Shown here: piece by piece, positions 1 to 30,763 of the stretch | Position numbering within the stretch: the first letter of the stretch is position 1 | How the letters are laid out: every line of letters starts with the position of its first letter | Sequence record: MT833282.1 | Length of the DNA stretch: 64,000 bases | Reading direction: 5' to 3' (one strand) | Origin: Escherichia coli phage vB_EcoM_Shy | Notes under the pieces: model-generated | The model's input: the letters and a program-made list of their open reading frames with translations, nothing else | What the model was told of the DNA's origin: nothing | Database searches by the model: none | Made by a program: the position numbers and the translations under genes

Positions 1-2292
1 ATGACACCCGAAATGTTCAGCCTTTTAAGTTCTGGTGTATATACCTTTAAAGAAAGGGCAGTTATTCGTGAACTGTCATGTAACGCAGTAGATGCTCAGA
101 AAGAAGCTGGAAAAGAGAACATCCCGTTCCATGTGCATTTACCTACTCGTTTTGAGCCTTACTTTGAAGTTCGTGATTTTGGAACTGGATTGACTCATGA
201 TAAAGTTATGAGTTTGTATCTAAACTATGGGGCTTCTACGAAGAATGACTCTAATGACTACATTGGTGCAATGGGTATCGGTTCAAAATCTCCATTTGCA
301 ATTGCTCAGTCATTCACAGTATCTAGCTATGTTGATGGTGTTGTTAATAAGTACTCTGTTTACCTTGAGAATGGTATCCCTCAAGTAACTAAGCTGACCA
401 CCAACCCAACAAAAGAGCCTAATGGTTTAGCTGTACGTGTAGCAGTTGCTGACCATCGTATTTCAAAGTTCTTTGAAGAAGCTGGTCATGTATACTCATA
501 CTTTGCTGTAAAACCAGAAAGTAACATCGAGTATGACGATGTATTAGCAGATATGAATGTCATTGCCCGTGAAGAAGGTGTCTATGATGCCATGATTCAT
601 AAGCAAAGCTGGCGTTCTAGTGGTAACAGGACAGAGTTTAATGTGGTGATGGGTAATATCGCCTATCCAGTTAACATGGAAGCATTACTTGGAGATGATT
701 TCTTCAAAATCTTGCCAGAATTTTTCCGTAGGAGCGTAGACCTTGTAAACATCTACATGCCTATTGGTTCAGTTGCTATTGCAGCTTCTCGTGAAGCATT
801 GCAGATGAATGACACGACAAAAAATGTTATCATCGAGGCTACTAAAAAGATAACTGAAGCAATTACAAAGGATGTTATCAAGAAAGTTAATAGTCAACCT
901 ACACTCATGGATGCTGCACAGGCTTATGCTGAGTTACGCTTGAACTCACGAGAGATGTTTAATGCTGTGTGTCCAAAGCTAGAGTGGGGAGGCGTTAAGC
1001 TTGATTCTCTGGAAGAAGAATTACTAAACATTCGTCGTGGAATTATCTACGCAGAAGACGGCTCAGTTATTTATGAACGTGATGGTAAAGGTAATATTAA
1101 GGTTGATAGGAACGGAAACAACATCCCTAAAGTAGATTATCTTTATAATCCAGTTGCTTATGTTAAGTTCAACTCTTTAGAAAGTAAGATTCGTGCAACA
1201 GCACTTTCCTACACTCAAGAGGCAAGTATGTTCAATATCTTTGGCGCAATGCGCAAAAGCCAAATTGAACAGTTTTTGTTTGTTATCAATGACCGTCGCA
1301 ATAAAAATGGTACTGAGAAGACTGTAGGACGCAACCAAATCTTGCGTGGTGCATGTCGAGACTATGCCAGTGAGTCAAGTCTGTTTCACAGATATAATGG
1401 TATTGTCTTTGTATTCTCTAATGAGAAAGAGCTAGACGACTTAATCAATCTGCACAAACTTGATAAAAGCTTGTTAAAGATTGTGAAGATGTCTGATAAG
1501 GAACATCATTATCAGCGTAAAGAAGCTGTAAGAGGTGTTGTAAAACTTTGGAAAGCTGTTCCAGCAGAAGGTGTAGCTTCATACAAAGAGGTGTCAGAAG
1601 ACTTAGATACGATTGAAGAGCCTCAGCTTTATATTAAGGCAGTAGGCGACACAGTTGATGGCGAATGTTTTTGCTCATCTCCAGAAGATGTAGCTAAGTC
1701 AGTTGCCAATGTCATTGAAAAGACAGTCTATGTTTTCCGAAAAGCAAATTGGAAAAAGATACCAGAAGACTGGATTGAAGTAGATGAGAAGCTCTTGAAC
1801 GATAGCTTAACTGATGTTCACTGGATTAATCATAACAGGTATATGACACGTATCTATATGAATGGTGTCCTCGACCTTACAAGCAGTTGGATTATTGCCA
1901 GAAACTTTACGTTCAATAACAGGAAGATTTCTCGTGGCTATTGCTATTCACGAGACACAAACAAAACTATCTTCTTAGAAGGCAATGAAGATGCTGTTGA
2001 GGCAATGTTTGGTAAAATCCAATACGTTGCTGCACCGTTTGCATACACTTACACTATTAGTCGGTTGCAAACTTTGAAAGAGTGCCTTGACAATGATACA
2101 AAGCTGTACAAGAAAATTAAGAAAGCTGGTGACCGTATGGTCATTAAGGTGACAAACTATCTTTCAAAAAGAAAACAAGAAAACTTCTTGCTTTCTCATT
2201 TAGATTGGAATAAAGTGTCACCCATCGAAGTGAGTAAGTTCTTAGGCTTTGATGTGAAGTGTGTTCCAGAAGGGACTACAATTTACGATTAA
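1..2292 (+). CDS. rIIA: rIIA-like protein (5' end truncated by window edge)
   Basis: 763-aa ORF open from position 1; N-terminal GHKL/HATPase-like motifs (ELSCNAVDA, RDFGTG, SNDYIGAMGIGSKSPF) match the T4 rIIA pattern as I recall it; followed by an rIIB-like gene. Confidence 0.88.
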   Translation: MTPEMFSLLSSGVYTFKERAVIRELSCNAVDAQKEAGKENIPFHVHLPTRFEPYFEVRDFGTGLTHDKVMSLYLNYGASTKNDSNDYIGAMGIGSKSPFAIAQSFTVSSYVDGVVNKYSVYLENGIPQVTKLTTNPTKEPNGLAVRVAVADHRISKFFEEAGHVYSYFAVKPESNIEYDDVLADMNVIAREEGVYDAMIHKQSWRSSGNRTEFNVVMGNIAYPVNMEALLGDDFFKILPEFFRRSVDLVNIYMPIGSVAIAASREALQMNDTTKNVIIEATKKITEAITKDVIKKVNSQPTLMDAAQAYAELRLNSREMFNAVCPKLEWGGVKLDSLEEELLNIRRGIIYAEDGSVIYERDGKGNIKVDRNGNNIPKVDYLYNPVAYVKFNSLESKIRATALSYTQEASMFNIFGAMRKSQIEQFLFVINDRRNKNGTEKTVGRNQILRGACRDYASESSLFHRYNGIVFVFSNEKELDDLINLHKLDKSLLKIVKMSDKEHHYQRKEAVRGVVKLWKAVPAEGVASYKEVSEDLDTIEEPQLYIKAVGDTVDGECFCSSPEDVAKSVANVIEKTVYVFRKANWKKIPEDWIEVDEKLLNDSLTDVHWINHNRYMTRIYMNGVLDLTSSWIIARNFTFNNRKISRGYCYSRDTNKTIFLEGNEDAVEAMFGKIQYVAAPFAYTYTISRLQTLKECLDNDTKLYKKIKKAGDRMVIKVTNYLSKRKQENFLLSHLDWNKVSPIEVSKFLGFDVKCVPEGTTIYD

Positions 2293-2297
2293 AGTGT

Positions 2298-2327
2298 TTG
2301 ACAAGGGGCTTCAAAGCCCCTTAGAAT
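2298..2327 (+). promoter_or_regulatory. sigma70-like promoter (TTGACA-18-TAGAAT) with hairpin GGGGCT/AGCCCC in spacer
   Basis: TTGACA at 2298-2303 and TAGAAT at 2322-2327, about 45 nt upstream of the rIIB start. Confidence 0.5.
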
Positions 2328-2371
2328 AGCCTTACAAAATGATTTATTAACTAACAAGAGAGAGTAATAAG

Positions 2372-3481
2372 ATGACTACTAAAACTAAAGCACAGATTGA
2401 CGCAGAAATTTACAAACTGGTTAAAGAAGGTAAGCTAACTAAAACAGCTATTGCACAGAAGTTCAATACTTCAACCCGTTCAGTTGGTCGTGCTGTAGAG
2501 CGTCATGAAGCAACCTTAAAAGGTAAGAAAAAGGTAGCTTCGACACCAGCTAAGAAGACTTTGAAGCAAGTTGCTAAGACCTTTAAAAAGAAAGCTGACA
2601 AACCAGTTGAAAAGGTCGTTAAAGAGTCTGTACAGAAAGCTCCAGTAAATAAACTGCATGAAGCTATGCAGAAAGATGACAAGATTGAGTACATGATTAC
2701 TGGTGACTCTGTAATTATGACTTACGGTTCAGAATCTGAAATTGTTGAATCTACTCATCCGAACTATCAAGAGATTGTAGTTCATGTTGTGAAAGGTGAG
2801 TTTAAGAAAGCCTTTGAACTGATGAACATTCGTAAGTCTATCGAAAACTTCACTCAGGGTGCTATCACAATCAAAGGTGACAAGTTATTCTACGGTGCTG
2901 TTGAGATGCGTTCTACTCTGGTTGACCGTATCCTTCACATGATGAAGACTGGTGATAAAGGTTTTGAACGACTTGTAATGTTCTTCGAAAAACTGATGGA
3001 AAACCCATCTAAAGATTCTGTAGAACAGCTTTGGGGATTTGTATCTCACCTTGATGTTGAAATTGATGAAGAAGGCTACATCATTGGTTGGAAGAAAGTT
3101 TCTACTCGTGAAGGCAAGCTGGTTGACTCCCACACCTACAAAGTGCCTAATGATTTGGGTAACATTGTAGAAATGCCACGTTGGATGGTTGATAATAACC
3201 GTAACGTAACTTGCTCTCAAGGTCTTCATGTTGGTGCTTGGGATTATGTTCGTTGCTTCTCAGGTGATACAATCCTGAAGGTTCGTGTCCATCCACGAGA
3301 TGTTGTATCTGTTCCGACTGATTACAACGATATGAAGATGCGTTCATCCCGTTATGAAGTTGCAGCAATCGTCGATAATCAACGTAAAGTTCTGAAAGCA
3401 TGGGATGGTAAGACTGAAGCTTTGCATGTCATCGTTGGTACTGCTGGGGAACTCATCTCTCAACGTAAACGTGAAATCTAA
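2372..3481 (+). CDS. rIIB: rIIB-like protein
   Basis: 369-aa ORF directly after rIIA; C-terminal motifs (RSTLVDRIL, ENPSKDSV, TCSQGLHV, VRVHPRDVVSVPTDYNDMKMR) resemble T4 rIIB. Confidence 0.88.
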   Translation: MTTKTKAQIDAEIYKLVKEGKLTKTAIAQKFNTSTRSVGRAVERHEATLKGKKKVASTPAKKTLKQVAKTFKKKADKPVEKVVKESVQKAPVNKLHEAMQKDDKIEYMITGDSVIMTYGSESEIVESTHPNYQEIVVHVVKGEFKKAFELMNIRKSIENFTQGAITIKGDKLFYGAVEMRSTLVDRILHMMKTGDKGFERLVMFFEKLMENPSKDSVEQLWGFVSHLDVEIDEEGYIIGWKKVSTREGKLVDSHTYKVPNDLGNIVEMPRWMVDNNRNVTCSQGLHVGAWDYVRCFSGDTILKVRVHPRDVVSVPTDYNDMKMRSSRYEVAAIVDNQRKVLKAWDGKTEALHVIVGTAGELISQRKREI

Positions 3482-3496
3482 TAAGTAATTTCTTAA

Positions 3497-3521
3497 AAGG
3501 CTGCTTCGGCGGCCTTTTTTA
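3497..3521 (+). terminator. rho-independent terminator
   Basis: hairpin AGGCTGC-TTCG-GCGGCCT followed by TTTTTT, immediately after the rIIB stop. Confidence 0.7.
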
Positions 3522-3522
3522 T

Positions 3523-3550
3523 TTGTATTTTGTGCAGAGTGCTGTATAAT
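3523..3550 (+). promoter_or_regulatory. sigma70-like promoter (TTGTAT-16-TATAAT)
   Basis: perfect -10 TATAAT at 3545-3550 about 30 nt upstream of the 3582 start; TTGTGCAG motif in the spacer. Confidence 0.55.
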
Positions 3551-3581
3551 TGTGGTCACGATAAACTAAACAGGAGAACCA

Positions 3582-4130
3582 ATGAAGAAGTTGATTCTAG
3601 GTTTGTGCTTAATGTTTACAGCACACTTATCTTATGCAGTTGACTGCCCAGAGCTATCAATTAGCCAAAAAGTAAACATGTTAAAAGCTTACCAGTATGG
3701 TGAGAATAATATGGGTAAAGGCTGGGGTATCACTCTAGCTGCTATAGCCTTACAAGAGTCAGAGTTAGGTCTGAAGGTAGAGAATAAAAAGACCCATGAC
3801 TATGGTATTTTCCAGAATCACTTGAAGACTGTTGTAAAGCGTAACAAAATCAGTCCTAATGTGGCTAAAAAGAAACTCTTAAAAGATTTTGACTATGCTG
3901 CAAAGGAAACACACAAAGAGCTTGAGTTTTGGACGAAGGTACATGGTCAACCAAAGTCAAAGAAGACTTTACAAAAAGTTTTAGCATCATATAATGCTGG
4001 GTATTCGTACAGAATCCCTAAAGCTAAGAAATACTCTCAAGATGTCTATAACAATATGAAAGTCATCGCTCAATGTGAATTTGCAACAAACATTTCTAAG
4101 GTAAATCATGAAAAAATTAAGAAAGTCTGA
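3582..4130 (+). CDS. secreted lytic transglycosylase (SLT/GH23-like domain)
   Basis: N-terminal signal peptide MKKLILGLCLMFTAHLSYA; ordered SLT motifs E-S (ALQESELG), GIFQ (GLMQ-like) and YNAG (SYNAGYSY); AGGAG SD. Confidence 0.65.
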   Translation: MKKLILGLCLMFTAHLSYAVDCPELSISQKVNMLKAYQYGENNMGKGWGITLAAIALQESELGLKVENKKTHDYGIFQNHLKTVVKRNKISPNVAKKKLLKDFDYAAKETHKELEFWTKVHGQPKSKKTLQKVLASYNAGYSYRIPKAKKYSQDVYNNMKVIAQCEFATNISKVNHEKIKKV

Positions 4131-4803
4131 TGAAGTACTGTGCCATGCTTACGACTTGCATCCTCATGAGTTAGGTCTTGATTCCTGTGTATGGACTCCA
4201 GAACAGTGCAGAGATTTTGAAGATACTGCAAGAGAAGTTGTATGTTCACTTGAAGAGTTCCACACATCAGAACCAATTGTGAACGTTGTGGACAAAGAGA
4301 CTGGACAATCTATAGGTGTAAGACGTGACAGTTTAGTCATAGTCAATAAAGACCTTGTAGAAAAAGGTAACCTCATCTTAGCAGATATTGATGGTGTTCT
4401 TACAAATTTTAATCACGAAGATTGCTCAACGGAACTGATTGATGGGTCATTTTCACAGTACACTAATTTGCTTGACTCTGTAAGTGCAAAACCAACGTAT
4501 GTTTTCAATATTATTGATGCAATCTCTAATCATGCTGCCATTGGACTCTTGACAGCGAGAGGTGAATCTCAGAGAATACCTACTGAGATGTTTTTAAGGC
4601 ATTACATAGAGCATGATTACATGCTTTTTATGCGTGGTTTTGGAACTAACTCTATAAATGCAGAAAGTTTGAAAGTGAGGATGATTCAGTCTTGCATTCT
4701 TCCTTACTTTAATATAGTATGTTTTATAGAAGATACAGAGAAGAATGTTCAGAAGGTAAACAGAATCCTTCCGCACATTAAAACTATGTTAGTAAAACAT
4801 TGA
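4108..4803 (+). CDS. HAD-superfamily phosphatase-like protein
   Basis: 231-aa ORF with HAD motif I DxDGV (LILADIDGVLTNF); start overlaps upstream gene by 23 nt. Confidence 0.5.
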   Translation: MKKLRKSDEVLCHAYDLHPHELGLDSCVWTPEQCRDFEDTAREVVCSLEEFHTSEPIVNVVDKETGQSIGVRRDSLVIVNKDLVEKGNLILADIDGVLTNFNHEDCSTELIDGSFSQYTNLLDSVSAKPTYVFNIIDAISNHAAIGLLTARGESQRIPTEMFLRHYIEHDYMLFMRGFGTNSINAESLKVRMIQSCILPYFNIVCFIEDTEKNVQKVNRILPHIKTMLVKH

Positions 4804-4813
4804 GAGAAAACTT

Positions 4814-5278
4814 ATGAACAATATCATTACGGTAGCACTGGACGTTACGGCAAACAAATCTGAAGTAGTTCGTAACATTATCAAAAGCAACTTTGAGGGT
4901 AAAATCTTCCGTGCTGTCAATGTAAAAGCAGACGGTAACATCCGAGAGTATCGTGCTCTTCTGAATGTTAAGAAACACGTCAAAGGTGCTGGTTCAACGA
5001 CTGCACACAAAGAAAACCTGATGACTATCTATGATATGGGTATGGCTTCAGAGTTAGGTGCTGAAGGTATCGTTAAAGAAGGTGCTCCGTATCGCTCTTT
5101 CAATCTGGAAACTGCTCTTATGCTTTCCTTTACAAGTGGTTCTAAAACAACTACTTATCTCTTTACTGATGCTGCAACGGTATCTGCTATCAAGGATAGC
5201 ACCGTCAAAGCTGGGGTAGCTGCTGCTGCAAAAGCTTCTTCGATGGCTGCAAATGTCCTTGCTAAAGTCCTCGGTTAA
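4814..5278 (+). CDS. hypothetical protein
   Basis: 154-aa ORF, Ala/Ser-rich C-terminus, followed by a terminator. Confidence 0.5.
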   Translation: MNNIITVALDVTANKSEVVRNIIKSNFEGKIFRAVNVKADGNIREYRALLNVKKHVKGAGSTTAHKENLMTIYDMGMASELGAEGIVKEGAPYRSFNLETALMLSFTSGSKTTTYLFTDAATVSAIKDSTVKAGVAAAAKASSMAANVLAKVLG

Positions 5279-5290
5279 GGTTAAGATACA

Positions 5291-5316
5291 GGCTCCTTCG
5301 GGAGCCTTTTTCATTT
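5291..5316 (+). terminator. rho-independent terminator
   Basis: GGCTCC-TTCG-GGAGCC hairpin followed by TTTTT. Confidence 0.7.
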
Positions 5317-5330
5317 CAGGAGATTGTTAA

Positions 5331-5678
5331 ATGACATTTAAAGAGTTCTGCCAAGCTACTTTCATAATTGTTTTCTTAGTTGGAGCAGGTGTCTGGGGAG
5401 GATACTCTTACAGAGACTACCAAGTTGCTGAAGCTGAGCTAAATAATGAGAGACTAATAAGTGTTGCCAAAGATGCTTATCAGGAAGGTTTAGCCACACT
5501 CAGCACCAATTACAAAAATGATTTGAAAGATGTGCTTGCTAAGAATAAGCACACAAAAGAGGTAATAACATATGAAAAGACTAAGCCAGAGTTTTATAAT
5601 GTTTGTGTTACTGATAATTATGTCAGGGTGTTCAACGAACAAAGTGAACAGTACATTCAAAAACTCCCAAGTAAGTGA
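5331..5678 (+). CDS. i-spanin (Rz-like) candidate
   Basis: 115-aa ORF with single N-terminal TM helix (FIIVFLVGAGVWGG) and charged helical periplasmic domain; AGGAG SD; overlapped by a lipoprotein ORF in another frame. Confidence 0.6.
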   Translation: MTFKEFCQATFIIVFLVGAGVWGGYSYRDYQVAEAELNNERLISVAKDAYQEGLATLSTNYKNDLKDVLAKNKHTKEVITYEKTKPEFYNVCVTDNYVRVFNEQSEQYIQKLPSK

Positions 5679-5841
5679 GAGTGACAAGTACACTCAAGAA
5701 GAGTCAAGATTCACTGTCAAAGGTAATACTGGCAGTGATGTGGCAGCAGCCCTTGAGTTTTATCGTGATGGTTTTTACCAGTGCACAATCAAAGCTAATA
5801 ACCTTATTGACATGATTTTATTAGGGAACAAACAGCAATGA
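5572..5841 (+). CDS. o-spanin (Rz1-like outer-membrane lipoprotein) candidate
   Basis: 89-aa ORF starting inside the i-spanin gene in a different frame; signal peptide with lipobox (IIMSGC). Confidence 0.6.
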   Translation: MKRLSQSFIMFVLLIIMSGCSTNKVNSTFKNSQVSESDKYTQEESRFTVKGNTGSDVAAALEFYRDGFYQCTIKANNLIDMILLGNKQQ

Positions 5842-6107
5842 CAGAGAACGAAGACACTTTCTATGTAGAAGGGTACTTACTGCTACCACGACCAAAAGAA
5901 ACTTATATGCGGGTTGATTTTTCACCAACCATTATGGATAACGTGATGTGCCATATCTTTATGCAAGGTGTCACAGCACAGCTTAAGCATGTTGGTAAAG
6001 AGTGCAAAATAAAGGTTGACACTCATCCAGAAATCAAAGAGAATCACTACACATGGTTCTTACCAGACTCTAAAGAAATCTTAGCAGTTCTTAAAACGAG
6101 GAAGTGA
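5838..6107 (+). CDS. hypothetical protein
   Basis: 89-aa ORF, start overlaps previous stop (ATGA). Confidence 0.45.
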   Translation: MTENEDTFYVEGYLLLPRPKETYMRVDFSPTIMDNVMCHIFMQGVTAQLKHVGKECKIKVDTHPEIKENHYTWFLPDSKEILAVLKTRK

Positions 6108-6436
6108 CTATGCAGATTAATGGAAGAGACTTTGTAGCCGTTTACTACGAGAAAGATAAAGAAGTTGGTGTAGCACAAGTATCTTATGGTAATGGTAAGT
6201 GGTTGTATGGGACAATCGCAGTAGTCGGAACAAGAAGTGATACAAAAACTTTTAAAGACTGTGTTGACCTTCTTGAAGAATCCATCCATAATCATTGGTG
6301 TCTGATATGGATGACTGACAACGAAGTGATAGAACGCTTCAAAAAGATTGGTATCAACATTGATAGCATTGAGCATGTTGACTTGTATGAGCTAACTGAG
6401 AAGGTAAACTATGAAAGTAATACTAGCCAGAGATAA
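6104..6436 (+). CDS. hypothetical protein
   Basis: 110-aa ORF translationally coupled to the upstream gene. Confidence 0.45.
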   Translation: MTMQINGRDFVAVYYEKDKEVGVAQVSYGNGKWLYGTIAVVGTRSDTKTFKDCVDLLEESIHNHWCLIWMTDNEVIERFKKIGINIDSIEHVDLYELTEKVNYESNTSQR

Positions 6437-6638
6437 AAAGACACGGAAACTTATCAGGTCAGCGGTGTTCATTGGACGAAACGAGGTCATCCCATTTACA
6501 GCAAATGATGTGATAGCTTACAGGAAGAACTTAGTATTCACTGACTGTTTACGCGGCTTCATCTCTGAACCATTAGAAGATTTCAAAAGTCGCTGTGGCG
6601 AAGGCATCATCATTCAAGAGGCAATTATTCATGGCTGA
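6411..6638 (+). CDS. hypothetical protein
   Basis: 75-aa ORF in a compact co-directional gene string. Confidence 0.4.
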   Translation: MKVILARDKKTRKLIRSAVFIGRNEVIPFTANDVIAYRKNLVFTDCLRGFISEPLEDFKSRCGEGIIIQEAIIHG

Positions 6639-6831
6639 TTTCTGCAAAGATTGTGCTATCGAAATGTTTGGACGTGATACAGGTGACTTAAAAGGTCTTA
6701 TCACTGAAGATGACTTTAAAGCTGGATATGCAATGCCAGTAATCTGTGAAGGTTGTGGATGTATCTGGGTAGACCACGAAGGACAACGTGTAAAACCTTC
6801 AGAAGATAAAGAATCTTGGGAGAGATGCTAA
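6631..6831 (+). CDS. small zinc-ribbon protein (CxxC...CxxC)
   Basis: ATG at 6631 preceded by AAGAGG SD (the track's upstream start at 6595 is GTG); motifs CKDC and CEGCGC. Confidence 0.45.
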   Translation: MADFCKDCAIEMFGRDTGDLKGLITEDDFKAGYAMPVICEGCGCIWVDHEGQRVKPSEDKESWERC

Positions 6832-7617
6832 ATGGGTATTGTAAAAATTATCAATGGGGATATCTTCTCAGCATTTGATAAAGGTAAGTTTGATATCATT
6901 GGTCACGGTTGCAACTGTATGAACTTAATGGGTGCAGGTATCGCTGACAAGATTTCTAAACTTTACCCAAAAGCATATGAGACTGATACAGAAGTTTATC
7001 TGTATGCAGGAGGTATAGGTCACAAACCCTGTGAAAATTTACTAGGCAATTTCTCTGTAGCACGTTTAGAACAAGGCCGTATAGCTAACCTTTACACTCA
7101 GCTTAAGACTGGTAAAGATGCCCGATATAGTGCTTTAGAGTCATCTTTGAAACAGCTTAACAGATACTGTGAAGTCAATCAGTTGAAGAAAGTTGGGTTA
7201 CCTATGATTGGTGCAGGTATCGGTGGACTAGACCCTCAAGCCGTCACGGTTATCATTAATCAGGTGATGAAGAGTGTAGATGTGTATCTGTATGTCTACG
7301 AAGGAGAGATGTACCACAAGTTACGCTCAGGTTGGAAGAACTACTGTGAACCAGAATACTTTGCAGGTGTAGTAGTGTTCACTGATGATGCAGTTACCCT
7401 CTTCAGACGAAGAAAAGGTAAGATACATCAAAGTAACCCTCCGGTTGAAAAGATGTCTCTAAGTAACGCTCTAGTTACCCACCTGTCGAAGAGCAATCAC
7501 AGAATTGCAGTAACATTTGGCAGTGATGCAGATACATATATCTATGCAAGAACTGATGAGGATGTTGAGGAAATTTTCTCTTCACCGGAAGTAACCTTCT
7601 TAGACGCAAAGAACTAA
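6832..7617 (+). CDS. macro-domain (ADP-ribose-binding/processing) protein
   Basis: 261-aa ORF; N-terminal DIIGHGCNCMNLMGAGIA and downstream GLPMIGAGIGGLDP resemble the two glycine-rich macro-domain motifs. Confidence 0.6.
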   Translation: MGIVKIINGDIFSAFDKGKFDIIGHGCNCMNLMGAGIADKISKLYPKAYETDTEVYLYAGGIGHKPCENLLGNFSVARLEQGRIANLYTQLKTGKDARYSALESSLKQLNRYCEVNQLKKVGLPMIGAGIGGLDPQAVTVIINQVMKSVDVYLYVYEGEMYHKLRSGWKNYCEPEYFAGVVVFTDDAVTLFRRRKGKIHQSNPPVEKMSLSNALVTHLSKSNHRIAVTFGSDADTYIYARTDEDVEEIFSSPEVTFLDAKN

Positions 7618-7682
7618 GAAACTCTGTAGAATATTCACAATAGGTTAAGCCTTTCTTATCTGGTAAATTTTTCAGGTAAGGA

Positions 7683-7890
7683 GGGCTTTTTCATTTCAGG
7701 ATTGTGCAGGTAGAGTTCTGGACAGAAATCTGTAGAGATAATTTTGAACTCCAAAGAGAAAATTCATTTTCAAACTGTGCAGGTAATCTCCAAAGAGCTT
7801 TTTCATTTTCAAAACGTGCAGACCCCGCTCAGGTCGGGCAAGAAAAATCATTTTAGAATTGTGCAGGTAGGTGGGTGCAGGTGGGGATGT
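7683..7890 (+). repeat. array of 4-5 direct repeats TTTCATTTTCA-N-TGTGCAGGTA
   Basis: copies near 7683-7712, 7761-7785, 7801-7823, 7848-7871 and 7872-7886; related TTGTGCAG at 3530 and CTTTTTCATTTCAGGA at 5306. Confidence 0.6.
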
Positions 7891-8045
7891 CGCCATTTCT
7901 CACAAGGCTACCACATCTGGAAATAAAAGTCAACAGAAAAATTTGTAGCGGATTGAAAAATAATTCTTGATTGTAGTTCTGTTTTGTGGTAGTCGCGTGC
8001 GCCCGTTTCATTACAGTTTTTGCAAAAATATTTTTAAAATTCCTA

Positions 8046-8074
8046 TTGACTCTTTGAATATGGTTATCTAATAT
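8046..8074 (+). promoter_or_regulatory. sigma70-like promoter (TTGACT-17-TAATAT)
   Basis: near-consensus hexamers with 17-nt spacer about 50 nt upstream of the 8125 ORF. Confidence 0.55.
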
Positions 8075-8124
8075 TTGCATCAGACGGGCAATCAAGCCCA
8101 CTTCCTAAACTGGAGAATCAAAAA

Positions 8125-8331
8125 ATGCTTTACAGTCGTGAATTGATGGTTACAACTAACGTTAACACAAAGGTAAAACGTTTTTATATGCAAGTGTGCG
8201 GCGCATGGCGTAGAATATCAGAAGCTGATTATTGCAACTATGTAGAAACGGCAATCAATTCTAATTGCTACCTTACGAAGAATACAAAGCGACATATAAA
8301 ACAGACAGCGGTTTACTATTACGATATATAA
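8125..8331 (+). CDS. hypothetical early protein
   Basis: 68-aa ORF, first of a string of small rightward ORFs. Confidence 0.4.
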   Translation: MLYSRELMVTTNVNTKVKRFYMQVCGAWRRISEADYCNYVETAINSNCYLTKNTKRHIKQTAVYYYDI

Positions 8332-9878: not shown

Positions 9879-10175
9879 ATGAAATTATCAAATAAAGTTA
9901 GGGAAAACCTTAGCAAATTACTCAACAAAATTGATTTTATAGAGACATCAAGGAATAGTCATGATGTTATGGAATGGTTACACGGCAAAATAAAAGGCCG
10001 TCGTGTAGTGATTTGCTTATGGAATAGTTGCAGGGAGTATAAAAAGCCTGTATTGCAAATTAATGTTTATGATGATACTTTTAAAAGTCCTGTAAAGTCT
10101 AAAAGCGATTTATTAGAATCCTATGAGATAACTGTAAATGGCAAAGTATCACGTAAAGAGGAAACACCATGTTAA
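9879..10175 (+). CDS. hypothetical early protein
   Basis: 98-aa ORF with cassette SD. Confidence 0.5.
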   Translation: MKLSNKVRENLSKLLNKIDFIETSRNSHDVMEWLHGKIKGRRVVICLWNSCREYKKPVLQINVYDDTFKSPVKSKSDLLESYEITVNGKVSRKEETPC

Positions 10176-10501
10176 TGACTGGTATCACTGCAATCATTGC
10201 CATTTTCGCGCTATATAAGGCATATAAAGCCTATAATCTAGCAAATAAGGCAATCACACAGCAAGTTAGCAATAACCTTGTAGAGAGCTTTCTAGGGCGT
10301 TTAAGTGATGAGCAAATAAAGCGGCTAGAGATGAGCTTCAGATATAAAGCGAAAACCTATCAGATAAGTGACATCTTCAAAGATGATTTCCAGTTAGTTG
10401 ATGATTATAATTCTCTGATAAATGCTTTAAACATCAGTGACTTGAAAGACTATCACGCTGTAATTGTTCAAGAATTGAGCAAACGAAAACAAAGTGTTTG
10501 A
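10169..10501 (+). CDS. hypothetical protein with N-terminal hydrophobic segment
   Basis: 110-aa ORF overlapping the previous gene by 7 nt; N-terminus LMTGITAIIAIFALY looks membrane-associated. Confidence 0.45.
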   Translation: MLMTGITAIIAIFALYKAYKAYNLANKAITQQVSNNLVESFLGRLSDEQIKRLEMSFRYKAKTYQISDIFKDDFQLVDDYNSLINALNISDLKDYHAVIVQELSKRKQSV

Positions 10502-18149: not shown

Positions 18150-18683
18150 CTATAATTGTAGGTTGCATTCTTTACTTACCTCTTCAAGTTTAACCTCAGA
18201 GTCCTTAAGTCGTTTCTTATGAACTCTGAATCTCATTAGTGCGATGATGATACCAACTAAAGGAACAGCATACAAGTACCAAACATCATATACCTTTGTA
18301 GTAATCTGTGTAATGGTCAAATCTTGAGCTATGGAACTGATTGCTGATACTGCCAGTAATGTTGCTAAGAAAAATGCCAGTACCATTACTGTACTTAAAC
18401 AACCTCTGGCATGGTGTTCATGCTTAATACACTTATTCTTTTCGTCAACGACCCTGTTGTAGTCATTTGTAAAGTCTCTGTAGAAAGCTTTCAAGTATTC
18501 TTTATTGTAGCCTTCAAAGCAACCTGTACCGTACCAATAATCACCACCAAAATGTGCTATGATACCAGTATCTCCGTTTGGTTTAGTTACTCTCAAAGAA
18601 GTATGATGACGAGTATCTTGATAGTCTATTTTGTATCTTTCTTCGTAAATCATTTTCCAATCCCTCTCAATCGTTTGTTCCAC
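18150..18683 (-). CDS. membrane protein (two predicted TM helices in C-terminal half)
   Basis: 177-aa ORF; hydrophobic segments VMVLAFFLATLLAVSAISSIA and LYAVPLVGIIIALM. Confidence 0.5.
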   Translation of the reverse strand: MEQTIERDWKMIYEERYKIDYQDTRHHTSLRVTKPNGDTGIIAHFGGDYWYGTGCFEGYNKEYLKAFYRDFTNDYNRVVDEKNKCIKHEHHARGCLSTVMVLAFFLATLLAVSAISSIAQDLTITQITTKVYDVWYLYAVPLVGIIIALMRFRVHKKRLKDSEVKLEEVSKECNLQL

Positions 18684-21531: not shown

Positions 21532-21996
21532 TTACTTTGGGTATACACTGTCAAGATAAATGTCAGCTTCCATTCTACGTCTGTTTTTCAGACCATTTGA
21601 AGTGACCTTCTTACCTTTGACTGTAACCTTGTTCCACCACTGCATAGCTTCTGCACAACCTACCTTGTTACCAGCATTGTGGCGCTTGATAAATGTAGAA
21701 TCCTGCATAGCTGTGATACCGATGTTGTATGTTTCACTTACAAGTGCATCGAACTCATTCTGAGAAGTTGGAGCCTTGATAGCTTTATTCACTGCTGCAA
21801 CAAACTTCTCAACATCTGCGAGAAGATACTGTTCAGCTTGTTCAGCCGTGATTTTCATACCCATCTTAACAGGTTTTCCGTCAATACGGATTGTACCATA
21901 CCCAATTGTTGGGATTCCGGCAGAGTCTTCGTAAGCCTCTAACTTCAGACCTTCAAAGAACTTAATAGCTTCTAAACCTTTTCTTGAGAGTTGCAT
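21532..21996 (-). CDS. endolysin, T4-lysozyme-like (GH24 muramidase)
   Basis: 154-aa ORF; N-terminal EGLKLEAYEDSAGIPTIGYG resembles the T4 lysozyme catalytic region (E..., D, T); NAGN/ETYNIG downstream. Confidence 0.85.
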   Translation of the reverse strand: MQLSRKGLEAIKFFEGLKLEAYEDSAGIPTIGYGTIRIDGKPVKMGMKITAEQAEQYLLADVEKFVAAVNKAIKAPTSQNEFDALVSETYNIGITAMQDSTFIKRHNAGNKVGCAEAMQWWNKVTVKGKKVTSNGLKNRRRMEADIYLDSVYPK

Positions 21997-23381
21997 TATG
22001 CCTCCCCTGCTGGGTTAACTGTAACTGTTGCCGCATTAGATGTTACAGAGCCACCTGCACCAGTCACTACACAAGTGTAGCTTCCTGCATCAGCAGCAGT
22101 TGCACCTTCTTTGGTGTAAGTTGCAGTCGTTGCGTCTGGGATAACTTCCTCACCTTTCTTCCACTGGTAACCTGTTGCACCAGTTGCCACAACATTCAGC
22201 GTTAAGGTCTCACCTTCAGTGATTTCTTGATTGACTGGTTGTTGAGTGATGACTGGAAGAGCATTAACGGTAACAGTTGCAGCATTAGATGTTACTGTTG
22301 TACCACCTGCACCAGTAACTACACAGGTATATGAACCAGCATCGGCAGGGTCTGCTTTAGCTTTCGTGTAAGTTGCACCAGTTGCGCTAGGGATGTTCAC
22401 GTTGTCTTTCTTCCATTGATAACCTGTTGCACCTGTGGCCTCAATACTCAGCGTCAAACTGCCACCTTCATTGACTACTTGGTTAGTTGGCTGCTTGGTA
22501 ATAACTGGCAAAGCATTTACCGTGACAGTTGCAGGGTTAGAAGTAACAGAACCTCCAGCACCAGTTACAACGCAAGTGTAAGAACCTGCATCTGCTGGAA
22601 GCGCACCAGATTTGCTATAGTTAGCATTTGTAGCTGATGGGATGTCAGAGCCATCTTTCTTCCATTGGTAGCCTGTTGCACCTGTTGCAGTAACTGATAA
22701 TTCAATGTTTCCACCTTCATTAATGGTCTGGCTAGAAGGTTGCTGTGTAATCACAGGTAGTGCGTTAACAGTAACCGTTGCCGCATCTGAGGTAACACTT
22801 GTCCCCGCCTCTCCAGATACAACACAAGTGTATGAGCCAGCGTCAGAAGGAACTACAGATTGTTTTGTATAAGTTTCAGATGTGGCACTGGAGATATCCT
22901 CACCATCCTTCTTCCATTGATAACCAGTGGCATTAGTTGCGAGAACGCTTAGGGTAAGTGTTCCACCCTCATTGACTGTTTGGTTTGTCGGTTGCTGAGT
23001 AATTACTGGTGGCTTAATAGCATCCTTCAGCTTAGCATTCAACATTGAAAATGGCTTAACTCTTGCCAACCATTCACAATACACCGTGTCAACGTCTTTA
23101 CCATTGATAATTGCATATTGTAAATCCATGAAGAAGTCAGAAGTTCTCATTTGAGCACCGACGCTGTAAAGCAAATCATCACTAAAAGGAACTTTGTAGT
23201 CTGGTTTGTAGTCAAACTTCTTAACTTCTGCGATATCAGCTTCAGGCCAATATGAGCTATAGGTGAGTGGTAAAATAGCTTCTTGATATGTTCTAAAATC
23301 ATATCTCTTACCAGCCTTTACATTTGCGATGAAGCCCTTCACAAATTCTTTGAAGTCTGGGTAAGTCTTTGCTTTAATCAT
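21996..23381 (-). CDS. Ig-like-domain repeat protein (four tandem Ig-like modules), possibly virion decoration or adhesin
   Basis: 461-aa ORF; about 200-aa N-domain then four repeats of about 90 aa (ALPVITQQP...ATGATGYQWKKDG...DAGSYTCVVTGAGG...ATVTVN), also visible as about 270-bp DNA repeats. Confidence 0.6.
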   Translation of the reverse strand: MIKAKTYPDFKEFVKGFIANVKAGKRYDFRTYQEAILPLTYSSYWPEADIAEVKKFDYKPDYKVPFSDDLLYSVGAQMRTSDFFMDLQYAIINGKDVDTVYCEWLARVKPFSMLNAKLKDAIKPPVITQQPTNQTVNEGGTLTLSVLATNATGYQWKKDGEDISSATSETYTKQSVVPSDAGSYTCVVSGEAGTSVTSDAATVTVNALPVITQQPSSQTINEGGNIELSVTATGATGYQWKKDGSDIPSATNANYSKSGALPADAGSYTCVVTGAGGSVTSNPATVTVNALPVITKQPTNQVVNEGGSLTLSIEATGATGYQWKKDNVNIPSATGATYTKAKADPADAGSYTCVVTGAGGTTVTSNAATVTVNALPVITQQPVNQEITEGETLTLNVVATGATGYQWKKGEEVIPDATTATYTKEGATAADAGSYTCVVTGAGGSVTSNAATVTVNPAGEA

Positions 23382-27040: not shown

Positions 27041-27117
27041 CTCTGTTTAGCTCAGCTTGGTAGAGCGTTCCGTTTGGGGCGGTAAGGTCGGAGGTTCAAG
27101 TCCTCCAACAGAGACCA
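27041..27117 (+). tRNA. tRNA-Pro (anticodon UGG)
   Basis: hand-folded cloverleaf: acceptor CTCTGTT/AACAGAG, D-arm GCTC..GAGC, anticodon loop TTTGGGG, T-arm GGAGG-TTCAAGT-CCTCC, CCA encoded. Confidence 0.7.
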
Positions 27118-27124
27118 AATTAAT

Positions 27125-27202
27125 GTTCCAGTAGACAAAATGGTAAAGTCACCACTCTTTCAAAGTGGATATTTGAGGGTTCAAATCCCTTCTGGAACGC
27201 CA
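27125..27202 (+). tRNA. tRNA-Glu (anticodon UUC)
   Basis: acceptor GTTCCAG/CTGGAAC, anticodon stem-loop CCACT-CTTTCAA-AGTGG, T-loop TTCAAAT. Confidence 0.7.
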
Positions 27203-27209
27203 GTTTTGA

Positions 27210-27282
27210 CAGAAGACCAATTACAGCAAGTTTAATCTTATTCATCTGACACGAAATCGGACAAAGAAGAGATTTGGTCTGG
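27210..27282 (+). ncRNA. structured spacer element A (CAGAAGACC...TwCAGCAA...GGTCTGG family)
   Basis: conserved 5' CAGAAGACCAATTACAGCAA and 3' TTGGTCTGG forming a 7-bp helix (AGACCAA/TTGGTCT); occupies the whole tRNA-Glu/tRNA-Met spacer. Confidence 0.45.
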
Positions 27283-27293
27283 TCATTAAGAAT

Positions 27294-27370
27294 TGCGGGT
27301 ATAGAGAAAGGGCGTCTCACATGTCTCATTAGCATGGTATCGGCAGGTTCGACTCCTGCACCCGCCTCCA
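27294..27370 (+). tRNA. tRNA-Met-like (anticodon CAU)
   Basis: anticodon stem-loop CATGT-CTCATTA-GCATG, T-arm GCAGG-TTCGACT-CCTGC, acceptor with mismatched first pair; Met versus Ile(CAU) not decidable by eye. Confidence 0.55.
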
Positions 27371-27376
27371 ATTTTG

Positions 27377-27436
27377 CAGAAGACCGTATTCAGCAACAAA
27401 CTACTTTTTGCGGATAAAAGAAAAAACACGGTCTGG
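27377..27436 (+). ncRNA. structured spacer element B (same family)
   Basis: CAGAAGACCGTATTCAGCAA ... ACGGTCTGG; helix AGACCGT/ACGGTCT shows compensatory changes relative to element A. Confidence 0.45.
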
Positions 27437-27447
27437 CAATGTATTAA

Positions 27448-27524
27448 GGTTAGGAAGCACATAAGGTATGTGCGGTCGCCTGTTAAGCGAATGGCACAGG
27501 GTTCGAATCCCTGACTAACCGCCA
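27448..27524 (+). tRNA. tRNA-Asn (anticodon GUU)
   Basis: D-arm GCAC..GTGC, anticodon loop CTGTTAA, T-arm CAGGG-TTCGAAT-CCCTG, CCA encoded. Confidence 0.7.
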
Positions 27525-27595
27525 AATTTAGGAGAGAAGCGATTGCTCACCGATTTGTAAGGTGCAAGTCCTTAGCCTGAATAGAATAATAAAAT

Positions 27596-27683
27596 GTGTC
27601 GTTATCCCGTAGATGGTAGCGGTGGGGACTGTAAATCCCTTGTCATTGAGACTCGGTAGGTTCGACTCCTACACGGCACACCA
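27596..27683 (+). tRNA. tRNA-Tyr (anticodon GUA), long variable arm
   Basis: acceptor GTGTCGT/ACGGCAC, anticodon loop CTGTAAA, 88 nt with extended variable arm, T-loop TTCGACT. Confidence 0.65.
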
Positions 27684-27689
27684 AATAAA

Positions 27690-27767
27690 GGTTATGTAGT
27701 TTAATCTGGTTAAAATACTCCCCTGTCACGGGAGATGATGAGGGTTCAAATCCCTTCGTAACCGCCA
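27690..27767 (+). tRNA. tRNA-Asp (anticodon GUC)
   Basis: acceptor GGTTATG/CGTAACC, anticodon stem-loop CTCCC-CTGTCAC-GGGAG, T-loop TTCAAAT. Confidence 0.7.
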
Positions 27768-27853
27768 AATTATAATAAGTATTTCAAAATGATGTTTGAG
27801 AGGGCTATTTAGCCCCTCCCTTAAAGAGTTCTTACGAGTATTCTTTAAAGGAG

Positions 27854-27926
27854 CAGAAGACCAAATTCAGCAAGAACGTATGAAATTTCAAGCCAATTTA
27901 ATTTTGAAAATTTAAACTTGGTCTGG
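27854..27926 (+). ncRNA. structured spacer element C (same family)
   Basis: CAGAAGACCAAATTCAGCAA ... CTTGGTCTGG, 7-bp helix AGACCAA/TTGGTCT. Confidence 0.45.
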
Positions 27927-27939
27927 CTCAACAAATTTA

Positions 27940-28071
27940 CAGAAGACCGTTTACAGCAAAACTTAAACAATCTATTTCTCCGGTAAAGAAAAGGCGAAGG
28001 TTCGATTCCTTCACTCGGCAGATGTCGAGTTGGTGTAATGGTAGCACTTAAGATGATAAACAATGGTCTGG
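27940..28071 (+). ncRNA. structured element D with circularly permuted tRNA-like domain (Y-RNA-like candidate)
   Basis: 5' CAGAAGACCGTTTACAGCAA and 3' CAATGGTCTGG helix enclose T-arm (GAAGG-TTCGATT-CCTTC, 27996-28012), closed acceptor-like hairpin (ACTCGGC-AGAT-GTCGAGT, 28013-28030) and D-arm (GTGT-AATGGTA-GCAC, 28033-28047); order is T-arm, acceptor, D-arm. Confidence 0.5.
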
Positions 28072-28072
28072 T

Positions 28073-28209
28073 AATTATCTTTGTAGATAAGTTATTAAGC
28101 TTCCCTGTGAGTATGCGACCACAAAGGTGAAAGGGTAGATTCTAGATTTAACCCGAAAAGACACATCGCTACAGACCTTAAGCAAGTCTGGGTAGCTTAT
28201 CTACAAAGA
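28073..28209 (+). ncRNA. long hairpin element E (18-bp perfect inverted repeat enclosing about 100 nt)
   Basis: ATTATCTTTGTAGATAAG (28073-28090) is the exact reverse complement of CTTATCTACAAAGATAAT (28192-28209); interior contains CAGACC..GTCTGG hairpin. Confidence 0.45.
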
Positions 28210-28218
28210 TAATTTAAT

Positions 28219-28375: not shown

Positions 28376-28376
28376 A

Positions 28377-30205: not shown

Positions 30206-30763
30206 ATGAGATATTTGAAGTATGCTTCATGGATTTTCTTAGCTTTGTTAGAGCCATTTGCAGCAATCTTAGCAGTTATCTTAGCACCTTTCGTAGTTCC
30301 ATTTTACAGTGAGAAGAAAGGACACTTACCTTTCGGATTTAGATGGATGGAGACATATGACAACCCTATTGATGGTGATGAAGGTCATATCGAACGATGG
30401 GCTAAGATTAGAAAGATTGGTAAGCTAGGTGTCTATATGCAGAGAGTCGGATGGCTCTGGAGAAACAAAGCTTATAACTTCTCCTACCATGTGTTAGGAA
30501 GAGATGTAAAAGATGTTACTAAGTGGAAAGGTAATATCAACGTAAGTTCTAACCCTAAAGATAATCAGACAGGTTATCTCCTAATGTGGAACAGTAATGC
30601 TTGGGGATTATTCGCTTTTATCCCATCAATTAAAGTCTTTGGTAAACAATTCTACTGGAGAATTTATGTTGGGTGGAAACTTAAAAGTGTTGTCCCAGAA
30701 GAAAGAGCATTCTCAAGGGAAAGAGTTATGTTGGCATTCTTTATTCATCCACTGAGAAAGTAA
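30206..30763 (+). CDS. membrane protein embedded in the tRNA array
   Basis: 185-aa ORF with AAAGAGG SD; N-terminal TM helix (WIFLALLEPFAAILAVILAPFVV), aromatic-rich. Confidence 0.5.
   Translation: MRYLKYASWIFLALLEPFAAILAVILAPFVVPFYSEKKGHLPFGFRWMETYDNPIDGDEGHIERWAKIRKIGKLGVYMQRVGWLWRNKAYNFSYHVLGRDVKDVTKWKGNINVSSNPKDNQTGYLLMWNSNAWGLFAFIPSIKVFGKQFYWRIYVGWKLKSVVPEERAFSRERVMLAFFIHPLRK

Follow-up and report, generated by a model that had tools for sequence, protein, structure and literature searches.

The window, the whole stretch of 64,000 nucleotides that was analysed, is collinear with the genome of Salmonella phage Felix O1, with identical coordinates and 93.7% nucleotide identity over positions 1–6100. 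A database search returned 258 matching Felixounavirus records, and by these matches the window is assigned to a Felix O1-type myovirus (Felixounavirus) of Salmonella and E. coli. Four open reading frames (ORFs) were examined, at 3582–4130 (182 aa), 4108–4803 (231 aa), 5331–5678 (115 aa) and 5572–5841 (89 aa). They were found exactly where the initial annotation had placed its genes, as was the ORF of the distant endolysin. The features considered below are the following:

3495..3518, plus strand: intrinsic terminator after rIIB (10-bp stem with 5 GC pairs, T-run)
3582..4130, plus strand: predicted exported lytic transglycosylase of GH23/SLT fold, homolog of T4 Vs.1 (Felix O1 ORF3), from profiles, motifs, an AF2 model and homology
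4108..4803, plus strand: predicted HAD-type phosphatase, homolog of the 3'-phosphatase domain of T4 Pnkp (PseT), from the DIDGV motif at residues 93–97 and hhalign
4814..5278, plus strand: conserved protein of 154 aa, function unassigned (Felix O1 ORF5, PHROG 2267), closing the SLT transcription unit
5290..5307, plus strand: intrinsic terminator between the SLT and spanin units; the start codon of the i-spanin lies 23 nt downstream
5331..5678, plus strand: i-spanin (Felix O1 ORF6), with an N-terminal transmembrane domain (TMD, about residues 6–24) and periplasmic Cys92
5572..5841, plus strand: o-spanin (Felix O1 ORF7), with lipobox IMSGC (Cys20), Ser at +2 and Cys71
21532..21996, minus strand: soluble GH24 endolysin (Felix O1 gp35; PF00959, E = 2.5e-40)
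30206..30763, plus strand: holin candidate of 185 aa inside a tRNA cluster, with a single long N-terminal hydrophobic segment (residues 6–36)

All four ORFs are kept as ORFs across four Ounavirinae lineages. The SLT gene differs from that of Felix O1 at about 19 nucleotides with only one amino-acid change, which together with the conservation of the ORFs indicates that the genes are under purifying selection and are not chance ORFs. Similarly, the product of 4814–5278 has 100% amino-acid identity to Felix O1 ORF5 against a nucleotide divergence of 2.2%. The terminator at 3495–3518 divides rIIA-rIIB from the SLT unit, and a perfect TATAAT lies downstream of it at 3545–3550. In the record of Citrobacter phage Mijalis, terminators are annotated at both equivalent places, after rIIB and before the i-spanin gene. 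The element TTTCATTT..TGTGCAG was considered as a genome-wide promoter element and rejected, as it was not enriched (5 matches vs 2.1 expected) and its copies were local only. A search of NCBIfam gave no match above its cutoffs.

The 182-aa protein had been described as a signal-peptide SLT-domain protein, and its motifs, its modelled fold and a heuristic signal-peptide assignment all agree with that description. On its own it scored 19.2 bits against Pfam SLT (PF01464), below the gathering cutoff of 21.3, and 14 of 14 aligned family members matched the same model at E ≤ 0.01 (best 8e-12); judged by these profile scores it is a divergent member of Pfam SLT rather than a non-member. The motif set of GH23 family 1 (Glu-Ser, GxxQ, (A/S)YNxG and a downstream Tyr) is present in full. 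The catalytic Glu is E59, which like Q78 is unchanged in all 14 homologs compared, the most distant at 30% identity; G63, Y137, N138, G140 and Y151 are also invariant among these homologs, and S60 and G75 nearly so (≥90%). The ES and YNxG motifs recur in T4 Vs.1 and in the homologs from SFP10, a Hafnia phage and an Erwinia phage. The AF2 model (pLDDT 84) has the goose-lysozyme-like all-alpha catalytic fold and resembles lytic transglycosylases and g-type lysozymes, at modest Foldseek E-values (2.6e-3 at best). When the PDB was searched with a profile of the family, EtgA ranked first; the direct PDB search with the protein sequence gave no match, and profile and fold searches alone were informative. 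Identity to EtgA (EPEC T3SS) and to E. coli MltE/EmtA, Slt70, MltC and MltF, all of GH23 family 1, is only 13–20%. Unlike secretion-system enzymes such as EtgA, the phage protein has no associated secretion machine, and it is soluble whereas MltE is a lipoprotein. An Asp in the beta-hairpin region aligns with the GH23 family-1 enzymes but is not kept across the phage family.

By our own heuristic, residues 1–19 form a signal peptide laid out as MKK / LILGLCLMFTAHL / SYA↓VD, with a basic n-region, a 13-residue h-region and the SYA↓VD site. The same heuristic found a signal-peptide pattern with AxA-type sites in 18 of 18 relatives, T4 Vs.1 included, and no match to a lipobox pattern was found in the SLT protein. 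Cys22 and Cys165, which co-occur in most members of the family, are a probable disulfide pair. With a cleavable Sec signal peptide, the protein, about 18.6 kDa when mature, would be released into the periplasm of its infected host, where the disulfide would probably stabilise it. Glu59 would serve as the single acid/base catalyst of a family-1 GH23 lytic transglycosylase, cleaving the MurNAc-GlcNAc linkage and leaving 1,6-anhydroMurNAc ends.

The next gene (4108–4803) shares 23 nt with the SLT gene. Its reading as a HAD-like phosphatase is supported by the DIDGV motif and by homology to the Pnkp domain: hhalign aligned it with PseT residues 153–289 (92.2%, E = 5.8e-7) with the motifs in register, and it matches PHROGs 415, 505 and 3970; a direct PDB sequence search gave no match. 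T4 PseT carries a kinase domain, whereas the protein encoded here has the phosphatase domain only: its N-terminal 80 residues gave no alignment to the PseT kinase domain, and a search of the protein for a kinase P-loop/Walker A motif found none. The public annotation of this ORF as a polynucleotide kinase was rejected on the same grounds, the kinase domain being absent with no Walker A. The protein is a predicted Pnkp-type 3'-phosphatase, unrelated to lysis.

The remaining two ORFs form a spanin pair. The i-spanin matches PHROG 1152, 'Rz-like spanin' (4.8e-42); residues 6–24 are its sole hydrophobic segment, and its single periplasmic cysteine, Cys92, is invariant in four Ounavirinae lineages. 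A single-sequence AF2 model places helices over residues 27–71, with a mean pLDDT of only 50. The o-spanin begins with a lipoprotein signal, MKRLSQSFIMFVLLIIMSGC↓ST, and its Cys20, Ser21, Thr22 and Cys71 are invariant in the four lineages; it is annotated as an o-spanin in Mushroom, Mijalis and warpig. The two genes overlap by 107 nt in different frames, and the o-spanin gene extends 163 nt beyond the i-spanin stop, a layout also found in Mijalis, the Hafnia phage and the Erwinia phage. The pair had been called embedded. The TMD, the lipobox and the PHROG match bear out a spanin pair at 5331–5841, but the genes are of the overlapped two-component class, not the embedded one, since the o-spanin outruns the i-spanin. 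Consistently, the spanins of Felix01, FO1a and UAB_phi87 were placed in the overlapped class by Kongari 2018 (PMC6139136), and the invariant Cys92 and Cys71 agree with the rule described there, by which a pair has one or more periplasmic Cys to form disulfides between its subunits.

This pair would work like lambda Rz/Rz1. An N-terminal TMD would hold the i-spanin in the inner membrane, and the o-spanin, carrying lipid on Cys20, would be directed to the outer membrane by virtue of Ser at +2. Joined across the periplasm in a complex, with one periplasmic Cys from each partner providing covalent stabilisation, they would fuse the membranes after the endolysin has removed the peptidoglycan. The likeness to Rz/Rz1 lies in an N-terminal-TMD i-spanin, an out-of-frame lipoprotein o-spanin and periplasmic Cys. 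The differences are that the lambda genes are embedded and these overlapped, that Rz1 is proline-rich whereas the mature o-spanin here is proline-free, and that one periplasmic Cys per subunit sets the present pair apart from lambda Rz/Rz1.

The endolysin gene lies 15.7 kb from the spanin genes on the minus strand, in agreement with the earlier description of a T4-lysozyme-like endolysin about 16 kb away on the opposite strand. Besides its PF00959 match, the protein shows the E-8-D-5-T motif as FEGLKLEAYEDSAGIPT and similarity to T4 E (BLASTP, 1e-5); an N-terminal TMD or SAR domain was sought in it and none was found. No holin was found near either the spanin locus or the endolysin locus within the window, as had been noted before. 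The nearest membrane-protein ORFs are 10169–10501, 18150–18683 and 30206–30763. The product of the last, our holin candidate, matches only DUF7338 and PHROG 2143, both of unassigned function, and shows no similarity to T4 T by BLASTP; the homolog in phage Mushroom is labelled 'holin' on topology grounds. The ORFs at 10169–10501, 18150–18683 and 55703–56074 are further holin candidates, and five different ones have been listed for Felix O1 (Whichard 2010).

The lysis genes would accordingly occupy three loci or more, a dispersal like that of T4, with a GH24 endolysin, an overlapped spanin pair and a putative holin elsewhere. The initial annotation regarded this split arrangement as unusual, but Felix O1 has been described in just this state and was reported to lack a holin-lysin cassette (Whichard 2010). 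T4 is scattered likewise, its endolysin gene e lying at 66.5 kb, its spanin genes pseT.2/.3 at 135 kb and its holin gene t at 160 kb. Kongari 2018 (PMC6139136) agrees. The likeness to T4 goes further: the two phages share rIIA/rIIB, Vs.1-like and Tk.4-like macro genes, and each has its spanin pair no more than about 0.5 kb from a gene for a Pnkp-type phosphatase. In contrast, the gene order relative to the phosphatase is inverted between them, and the T4 spanin genes are 'separated' where those of the window are overlapped. BLASTP showed no similarity of the i-spanin to T4 PseT.3 or of the o-spanin to T4 PseT.2; since T4 T is also without similarity to the holin candidate here, the parallel is one of organisation and not of homology of these genes. 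For Felix O1, the literature and GenBank already record these genes, how they are dispersed and which class the spanins belong to, and the gene arrangement itself is ordinary and, as originally framed, of little consequence.

The SLT protein is clearly similar to T4 Vs.1 (NP_049725, with the UniProt-style name 'uncharacterized 20.7 kDa protein in vs-regB intergenic region'), at 32% identity over 174 aa (BLASTP, E = 2e-16; hhalign, 99.7%, E = 4e-26), and both proteins match PHROG 600 (1e-57 for the SLT protein and 2.1e-68 for Vs.1). The two are alike in length (182 and 181 aa), in the signal peptide and in the QES, FQN and SYNxG motifs, but Vs.1 lacks the Cys22/Cys165 pair. T4 vs.1 sits between vs and regB, whereas the SLT gene adjoins rIIB and the spanin genes. 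With tblastn, the Vs.1 family was found in 1,898 phage records, among which three myovirus groups are represented. A second, secreted muralytic enzyme is not the unusual feature it had been taken for, given its T4 homolog and this spread. The family has no linkage to lysis genes in T4 or Ackermannviridae. Literature searches for a function of Vs.1, within the library covered, returned no paper assigning one and no experiment on any Vs.1-family protein.

The labels in circulation for the 182-aa protein are 'RegB-like endoribonuclease', 'lysin' and 'hypothetical'. The first would make it a cytoplasmic enzyme, and it stands in the record of Mushroom (KP143762; 'endoribonuclease, T4 RegB-like') and in a few T4-like records; as 'Endoribonuclease RegB' or 'putative endoribonuclease' it is found on the homologs of slur11 and KaAlpha. 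BLASTP against T4 RegB gave E = 19, i.e. no similarity, and the strong similarity is instead to vs.1, the gene adjoining regB; a GH23 fold and a signal peptide also speak against this identity, which sequence and fold rule out and to which we give a negligible chance. The Felix O1 record describes its homolog as '20.7 KD protein in vs-regB intergenic region', and it is to this UniProt-style name ('...in vs-regB intergenic region') that the RegB label, since propagated to several records, can be traced. The protein is better annotated as a Vs.1-family exported lytic transglycosylase.

In Felix O1, RT-PCR assigned the transcripts of ORF3 (SLT), ORF4, ORF6 (i-spanin) and lysin ORF35 to one and the same 25-min class, and ORF3 was absent from the virion proteome. 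The description of the locus as an early region is true only loosely, in view of these transcript classes. They also bear on the earlier suggestion that the transglycosylase may act at infection, which is disfavoured by the 25-min class, the Sec signal peptide and the absence from the virion. Virion transglycosylases that open the peptidoglycan for DNA entry are common among phages, and T4 Vs.1 weakly matches the PHROGs 'lytic tail protein' and 'internal virion protein with endolysin domain', matches that are explained by the shared SLT domain and nothing more. Against such an infection-stage role stand the N-terminal Sec signal, the missing ORF3 in the structural proteome and the position of the gene within the rII/non-structural block; moreover, the cryo-EM paper on the Felixounavirus Bas63 refers to transglycosylase domains in a single place, in connection with bacteriocin hub proteins of C. 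difficile, and to lysozyme nowhere. We consider this role highly improbable. The SLT gene is only 1.2 kb upstream of the spanin genes throughout Ounavirinae, and this proximity, with a transcript maximum in the class shared with lysin and i-spanin, leaves room for a direct contribution, as a second, holin-independent secretory endolysin aiding lysis with the spanins; the muralytic fold, intact catalytic motifs and Sec signal would suit such an enzyme. However, a terminator separates the SLT unit from the spanins, and the family is unlinked to lysis genes in T4 and Ackermannviridae. T4 e mutants fail to lyse although vs.1 is intact, so a Vs.1-type enzyme is insufficient for lysis, and the periplasmic lytic transglycosylases of E. 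coli (Slt/Mlt) are normally tolerated without lysis. On balance a second endolysin seems improbable.

The enzyme might instead act in superinfection exclusion, in resistance to lysis from without or in another non-lysis periplasmic function, for example on the length or ends of glycan strands. Its predicted export before lysis and its position next to rIIA/rIIB in Ounavirinae point in this direction, as does the wide conservation of a family whose genes in T4 and Ackermannviridae are located away from the lysis loci. On the other side, we know of no exclusion protein with an SLT-type fold, and the timing is middle, not immediate-early; a role of this kind is rather unlikely. The most likely role of the SLT protein, as read from its sequence and context, is accessory peptidoglycan remodelling from mid-infection, as neither a lysin nor a virion enzyme; it would be the ortholog of T4 Vs.1 and lie outside the core lysis pathway. 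We hold with good confidence the account as a whole, that is, dispersed lysis genes, an overlapped spanin pair, an accessory Vs.1-type transglycosylase and a HAD phosphatase not concerned with lysis.

The Vs.1 family, present even in the best-studied phage, T4, lends itself to a cheap and clearly delimited study by knockout or expression. As a tentative extension, the Vs.1-type enzymes conserved in Felix O1-like, T4-like and Vi1-like myoviruses may serve an undescribed non-lytic periplasmic function. If that were true, the enzyme may pre-condition the sacculus from mid-infection for the spanin complexes or for rapid lysis, or alternatively may alter the peptidoglycan so that superinfecting phages are excluded, and the rIIB-SLT-phosphatase-spanin synteny kept across the Ounavirinae would be a trace of that link.

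The first 6.1 kb of the window align collinearly with the Felix O1 RefSeq: genes have the same coordinates in both, and 93.7% of nucleotides are identical; the window ORFs are therefore the Felix O1 ORFs, and the window endolysin is Felix O1 gp35. Every ORF proposed in the initial annotation was present. The coordinates common to both genomes are:

3582-4130, + strand, ORF3, SLT protein (182 aa)
4108-4803, ORF4, phosphatase
5331-5678, ORF6, i-spanin
5572-5841, ORF7, o-spanin

The stretch 3000-7000 matched 258 phage records, nearly all Felixounavirus (top match Salmonella phage ph2-2, 97.8%). The SLT gene differs from that of Felix O1 by ~19 nucleotides and one amino acid, and ORF5 by zero amino acids. 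The block order rIIA-rIIB-SLT-phosphatase-...-spanins-...-macro protein is kept in three other phages: Citrobacter phage Mijalis (Mooglevirus), a Hafnia phage (unclassified Ounavirinae) and an Erwinia Kolesnikvirus. Judged from sequence, the ORFs of the SLT/spanin block are real genes.

The SLT protein is homologous to T4 Vs.1; it has a GH23 fold and a conserved Sec signal, and its catalytic motifs are intact. Alone it scored 19.2 bits, just under the Pfam SLT threshold of 21.3, and a PDB search with its sequence directly gave no match. Twenty-one homologs were retrieved, of which 14 (lowest identity 30%) were aligned; all 14 matched Pfam SLT (best 8e-12). E59, G63, Q78, Y137, N138, G140 and Y151 were invariant in this alignment and S60 and G75 nearly so, the conserved columns belonging to the family-1 lytic transglycosylase motifs Glu-Ser, GxxQ and (S/A)YNxG. 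When the PDB was searched with the family profile, EtgA ranked first (E=2.5e-4); this lytic transglycosylase belongs to the EPEC type III system and is exported by Sec. Goose-type lysozymes were the next muralytic folds.

Comparison of the predicted (AF2) fold of the SLT protein with known structures
MltF, 13.2
Slt70, 11.7
MltC, 11.6
g-type lysozyme, 11.5
MltE, 11.0
EtgA, 10.3

The N-terminus reads MKK / LILGLCLMFTAHL / SYA|VD, corresponding to the n-, h- and c-regions of a predicted cleavable Sec signal (heuristic call), and a search of it for a lipobox found none. This type of N-terminal signal was seen in 18/18 relatives examined, mostly with a textbook AxA site. Most family members pair a Cys just past the predicted cleavage site with a Cys near the C-terminus, a sequence pattern that would fit the expected periplasmic disulfide. 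The protein was correctly described at the outset as a signal-peptide SLT-domain protein.

Public labels for SLT homologs conflict: 'endoribonuclease, T4 RegB-like' in Mushroom (KP143762), 'putative lysin' in warpig, and also 'hypothetical'. Identity as RegB was rejected, similarity to T4 RegB being absent (E=19). The SLT protein matched T4 Vs.1 with E=2e-16 (32% identity across 174 aa) and by hhalign with 99.7% and E=4e-26, and PHROG 600 contains both. In T4, vs.1 adjoins regB. In the Felix O1 RefSeq (NC_005282), ORF3 has a note reading 'hypothetical 20.7 KD protein in vs-regB intergenic region'. Databases formerly used this name for T4 Vs.1; the original annotators therefore already saw the homology. 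The 'RegB' label very probably arose by misreading the '...vs-regB intergenic region' name; T4 Vs.1 homologs mislabeled 'RegB endoribonuclease' also include those of slur11 (LN881734) and KaAlpha (MN013084). By tblastn, the family is present in 1,898/50,697 phage records, among Ounavirinae, Vi1-like Ackermannviridae and T4-like phages, the last infecting Escherichia, Klebsiella, Acinetobacter, Aeromonas and Vibrio; in T4 and SFP10 the gene lies away from the lysis genes. With 1,898 carriers, T4 included, the view that a second muralytic enzyme is unusual is not supported.

The product of 4108-4803 was rightly called a HAD-like phosphatase. A profile of four ORF4 orthologs aligned to residues 153-289 of T4 PseT (Pnkp), its 3'-phosphatase domain, with 92% probability (E=5.8e-7); DIDGVL of ORF4 aligned with DVDGTL of PseT, and later HAD motifs were also in register. 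A Walker A motif was sought in the ORF4 protein and was absent, and its N-terminal 80 residues did not match the PseT kinase domain. The usual GenBank label 'polynucleotide kinase' overstates its function. A Pnkp-type phosphatase gene lies within ~0.5 kb of the spanin pair both in Felix O1-type phages and in T4 (window 4108-5841 versus T4 134002-135781), but in T4 the gene order is inverted and the spanins lack sequence similarity to those of the window; the proximity could be coincidental or go back to an ancestral linkage in which the spanins were later replaced.

The i-spanin has a single N-terminal TMD (residues 6-24) and matches PHROG 1152 'Rz-like spanin' (4.8e-42). The o-spanin has a good Shine-Dalgarno and a basic n-region, and Ser-Thr comes directly after its lipobox, IMSGC. 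Its lipobox Cys, Ser21, Thr22 and Cys71, and Cys92 of the i-spanin, are invariant in four Ounavirinae lineages (31-82% identity). Structure prediction for the i-spanin periplasmic domain, aimed at helicity, gave a low-confidence model. The o-spanin gene overlaps the last 107 nt of the i-spanin gene in a different reading frame and ends 163 nt beyond the i-spanin stop, so that the spanin pair stands as proposed while its architecture is 'overlapped' rather than 'embedded'. Kongari et al. (2018) placed Felix01, FO1a and UAB_phi87 in the overlapped two-component class, and several GenBank records already annotate the pair as i-/o-spanin. Every defining feature at the sequence level was found, and by analogy the pair would work as Rz/Rz1 do. 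In the Hafnia phage SarahDanielle record, the i-spanin is misnamed 'o-spanin' and the o-spanin CDS as annotated (6619-6819) begins downstream of the true start and has no lipobox; the correct ORF is 6523-6819 (MKRQSF...LLMSMSGC, with lipobox).

Matches to PF00959 (2.5e-40) and PHROG 7 identify the endolysin unambiguously as a GH24 phage lysozyme. No TMD was found in it, and a holin is therefore needed. As initially noted, it lies far from the spanins (15.7 kb) on the opposite strand, and no holin is evident nearby: a hydrophobic-segment scan of all plausible ORFs found no membrane protein beside either locus. Other genes of interest are:

30206-30763, + strand, counterpart of the 185-aa ORF among tRNA genes named 'holin' by the Mushroom curators; sole protein gene within the tRNA cluster 27041-32121 (26 tRNA genes)
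55703-56074, + strand, 123-aa protein with N-terminal TMD and coiled-coil-like C-terminal part, directly 3' of the tail-fibre genes
18150-18683, - strand, 177-aa small membrane protein with two C-terminal TMDs
10169-10501, + strand, 110-aa small membrane protein with N-terminal signal-anchor-like segment
63265-63525, - strand, 86-aa predicted lipoprotein distinct from the o-spanin (lipobox FLSGC, Asn at +2, PHROG 902)
21996-23381, - strand, 461-aa protein with four tandem Ig-like repeats, directly upstream of the endolysin, whose start codon overlaps its stop

The product of 30206-30763 has one long hydrophobic segment, is unrelated to T4 T and belongs by family only to DUF7338/PHROG 2143. The name 'holin' lacks family-level support, and five other candidates for Felix O1 were put forward by Whichard et al., so that this ORF is an unproven candidate. 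By position, 55703-56074 should be one of those five, gp79 (ORF79, 5-min RT-PCR class); it weakly matches an 'Rz-like spanin' PHROG (E=0.0097). Either 18150-18683 or 10169-10501 could be a holin or antiholin, and the predicted lipoprotein at 63265-63525 may serve superinfection exclusion or have another role in the envelope. By position, 21996-23381 is the virion protein Felix O1 gp36; its Mushroom counterpart is named 'tail protein'.

The split arrangement, initially considered unusual, is already documented for Felix O1, and in another Felixounavirus the lysozyme is gp111, the holin gp79 and the spanins gp28/gp29 (PMC7925395). T4 lysis genes are likewise scattered (e at 66.5 kb, pseT.2/pseT.3 at 135 kb, t at 160 kb), the spanin genes being remote from t and e (Kongari et al.). 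Dispersed lysis genes are typical for large virulent myoviruses of this kind.

Three strong intrinsic terminators were found:

3495-3518, after rIIB
5290-5307, after ORF5, 23 nt ahead of the i-spanin start
7647-7688, after the macro gene

The Mijalis curators placed terminators at the same sites as the first two. An SLT-phosphatase-ORF5 unit and a spanin unit are therefore separable, and a perfect TATAAT precedes the SLT start by 31 nt. An identical 15-mer, TTTTTCATTTCAGGA, occurs at 5307-5321, where it supplies the i-spanin ribosome-binding site, and at 7687-7701; both copies are entered by the T-tracts of the adjoining terminators and may be a duplicated terminator/RBS module. Within the noncoding gap 7618-8126, four loose tandem ~40-nt units with TTTCATTTTCA..TGTGCAGGTA span 7690-7870, and a variant, TTTGTATTTTGTGCAG, is found a little 5' of the TATAAT preceding the SLT gene; genome-wide the motif showed no enrichment (5 matches versus 2.1 expected). 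The macro-domain gene (6832-7617, + strand, PF01661) corresponds to Felix O1 ORF13, annotated '17.5 KD protein in tk-vs intergenic region', which we take to be T4 Tk.4; several genes may therefore be common to the rII-proximal block and T4 tk-vs-regB.

By end-point RT-PCR, a coarse method for timing classes, Felix O1 ORFs 1, 3, 4, 6 and lysin ORF35 reached their maximum at 25 min, and the maximum of ORFs 2 and 5 came at 10 min (PMC3185647, Table 3). Since ORF3 and ORF6 share the class of the lysin, SLT and i-spanin timing is 'middle', not immediate-early. ORF3 was absent among proteins identified from purified Felix O1 virions, and in the Bas63 cryo-EM paper transglycosylase domains come up a single time, for C. 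difficile bacteriocin hub proteins, and lysozyme never. Together with the signal peptide, these argue against the suggested action at infection, and a role at DNA entry is disfavoured.

Non-virion status and middle timing are carried over from Felix O1 ORF3, which shares 99.5% identity with the SLT protein. The protein would be exported, cut after Ala19 and disulfide-bonded, and would act as a lytic transglycosylase on glycan strands in the infected-cell periplasm. That it serves as the lysin is unlikely: a canonical GH24 endolysin is encoded elsewhere in the genome, in T4 loss of e alone blocks lysis despite the presence of vs.1, and periplasmic lytic transglycosylases are normally tolerated by cells. 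Its role may be auxiliary sacculus weakening, remodelling in prolonged infection or exclusion; a literature search for Vs.1 function found no paper. The SLT protein, phosphatase, spanins and gene layout are all covered already by the records and literature on Felix O1 and T4. What deserves attention is the annotation error naming some Vs.1 family members RegB, and the family itself, uncharacterised yet very widespread.
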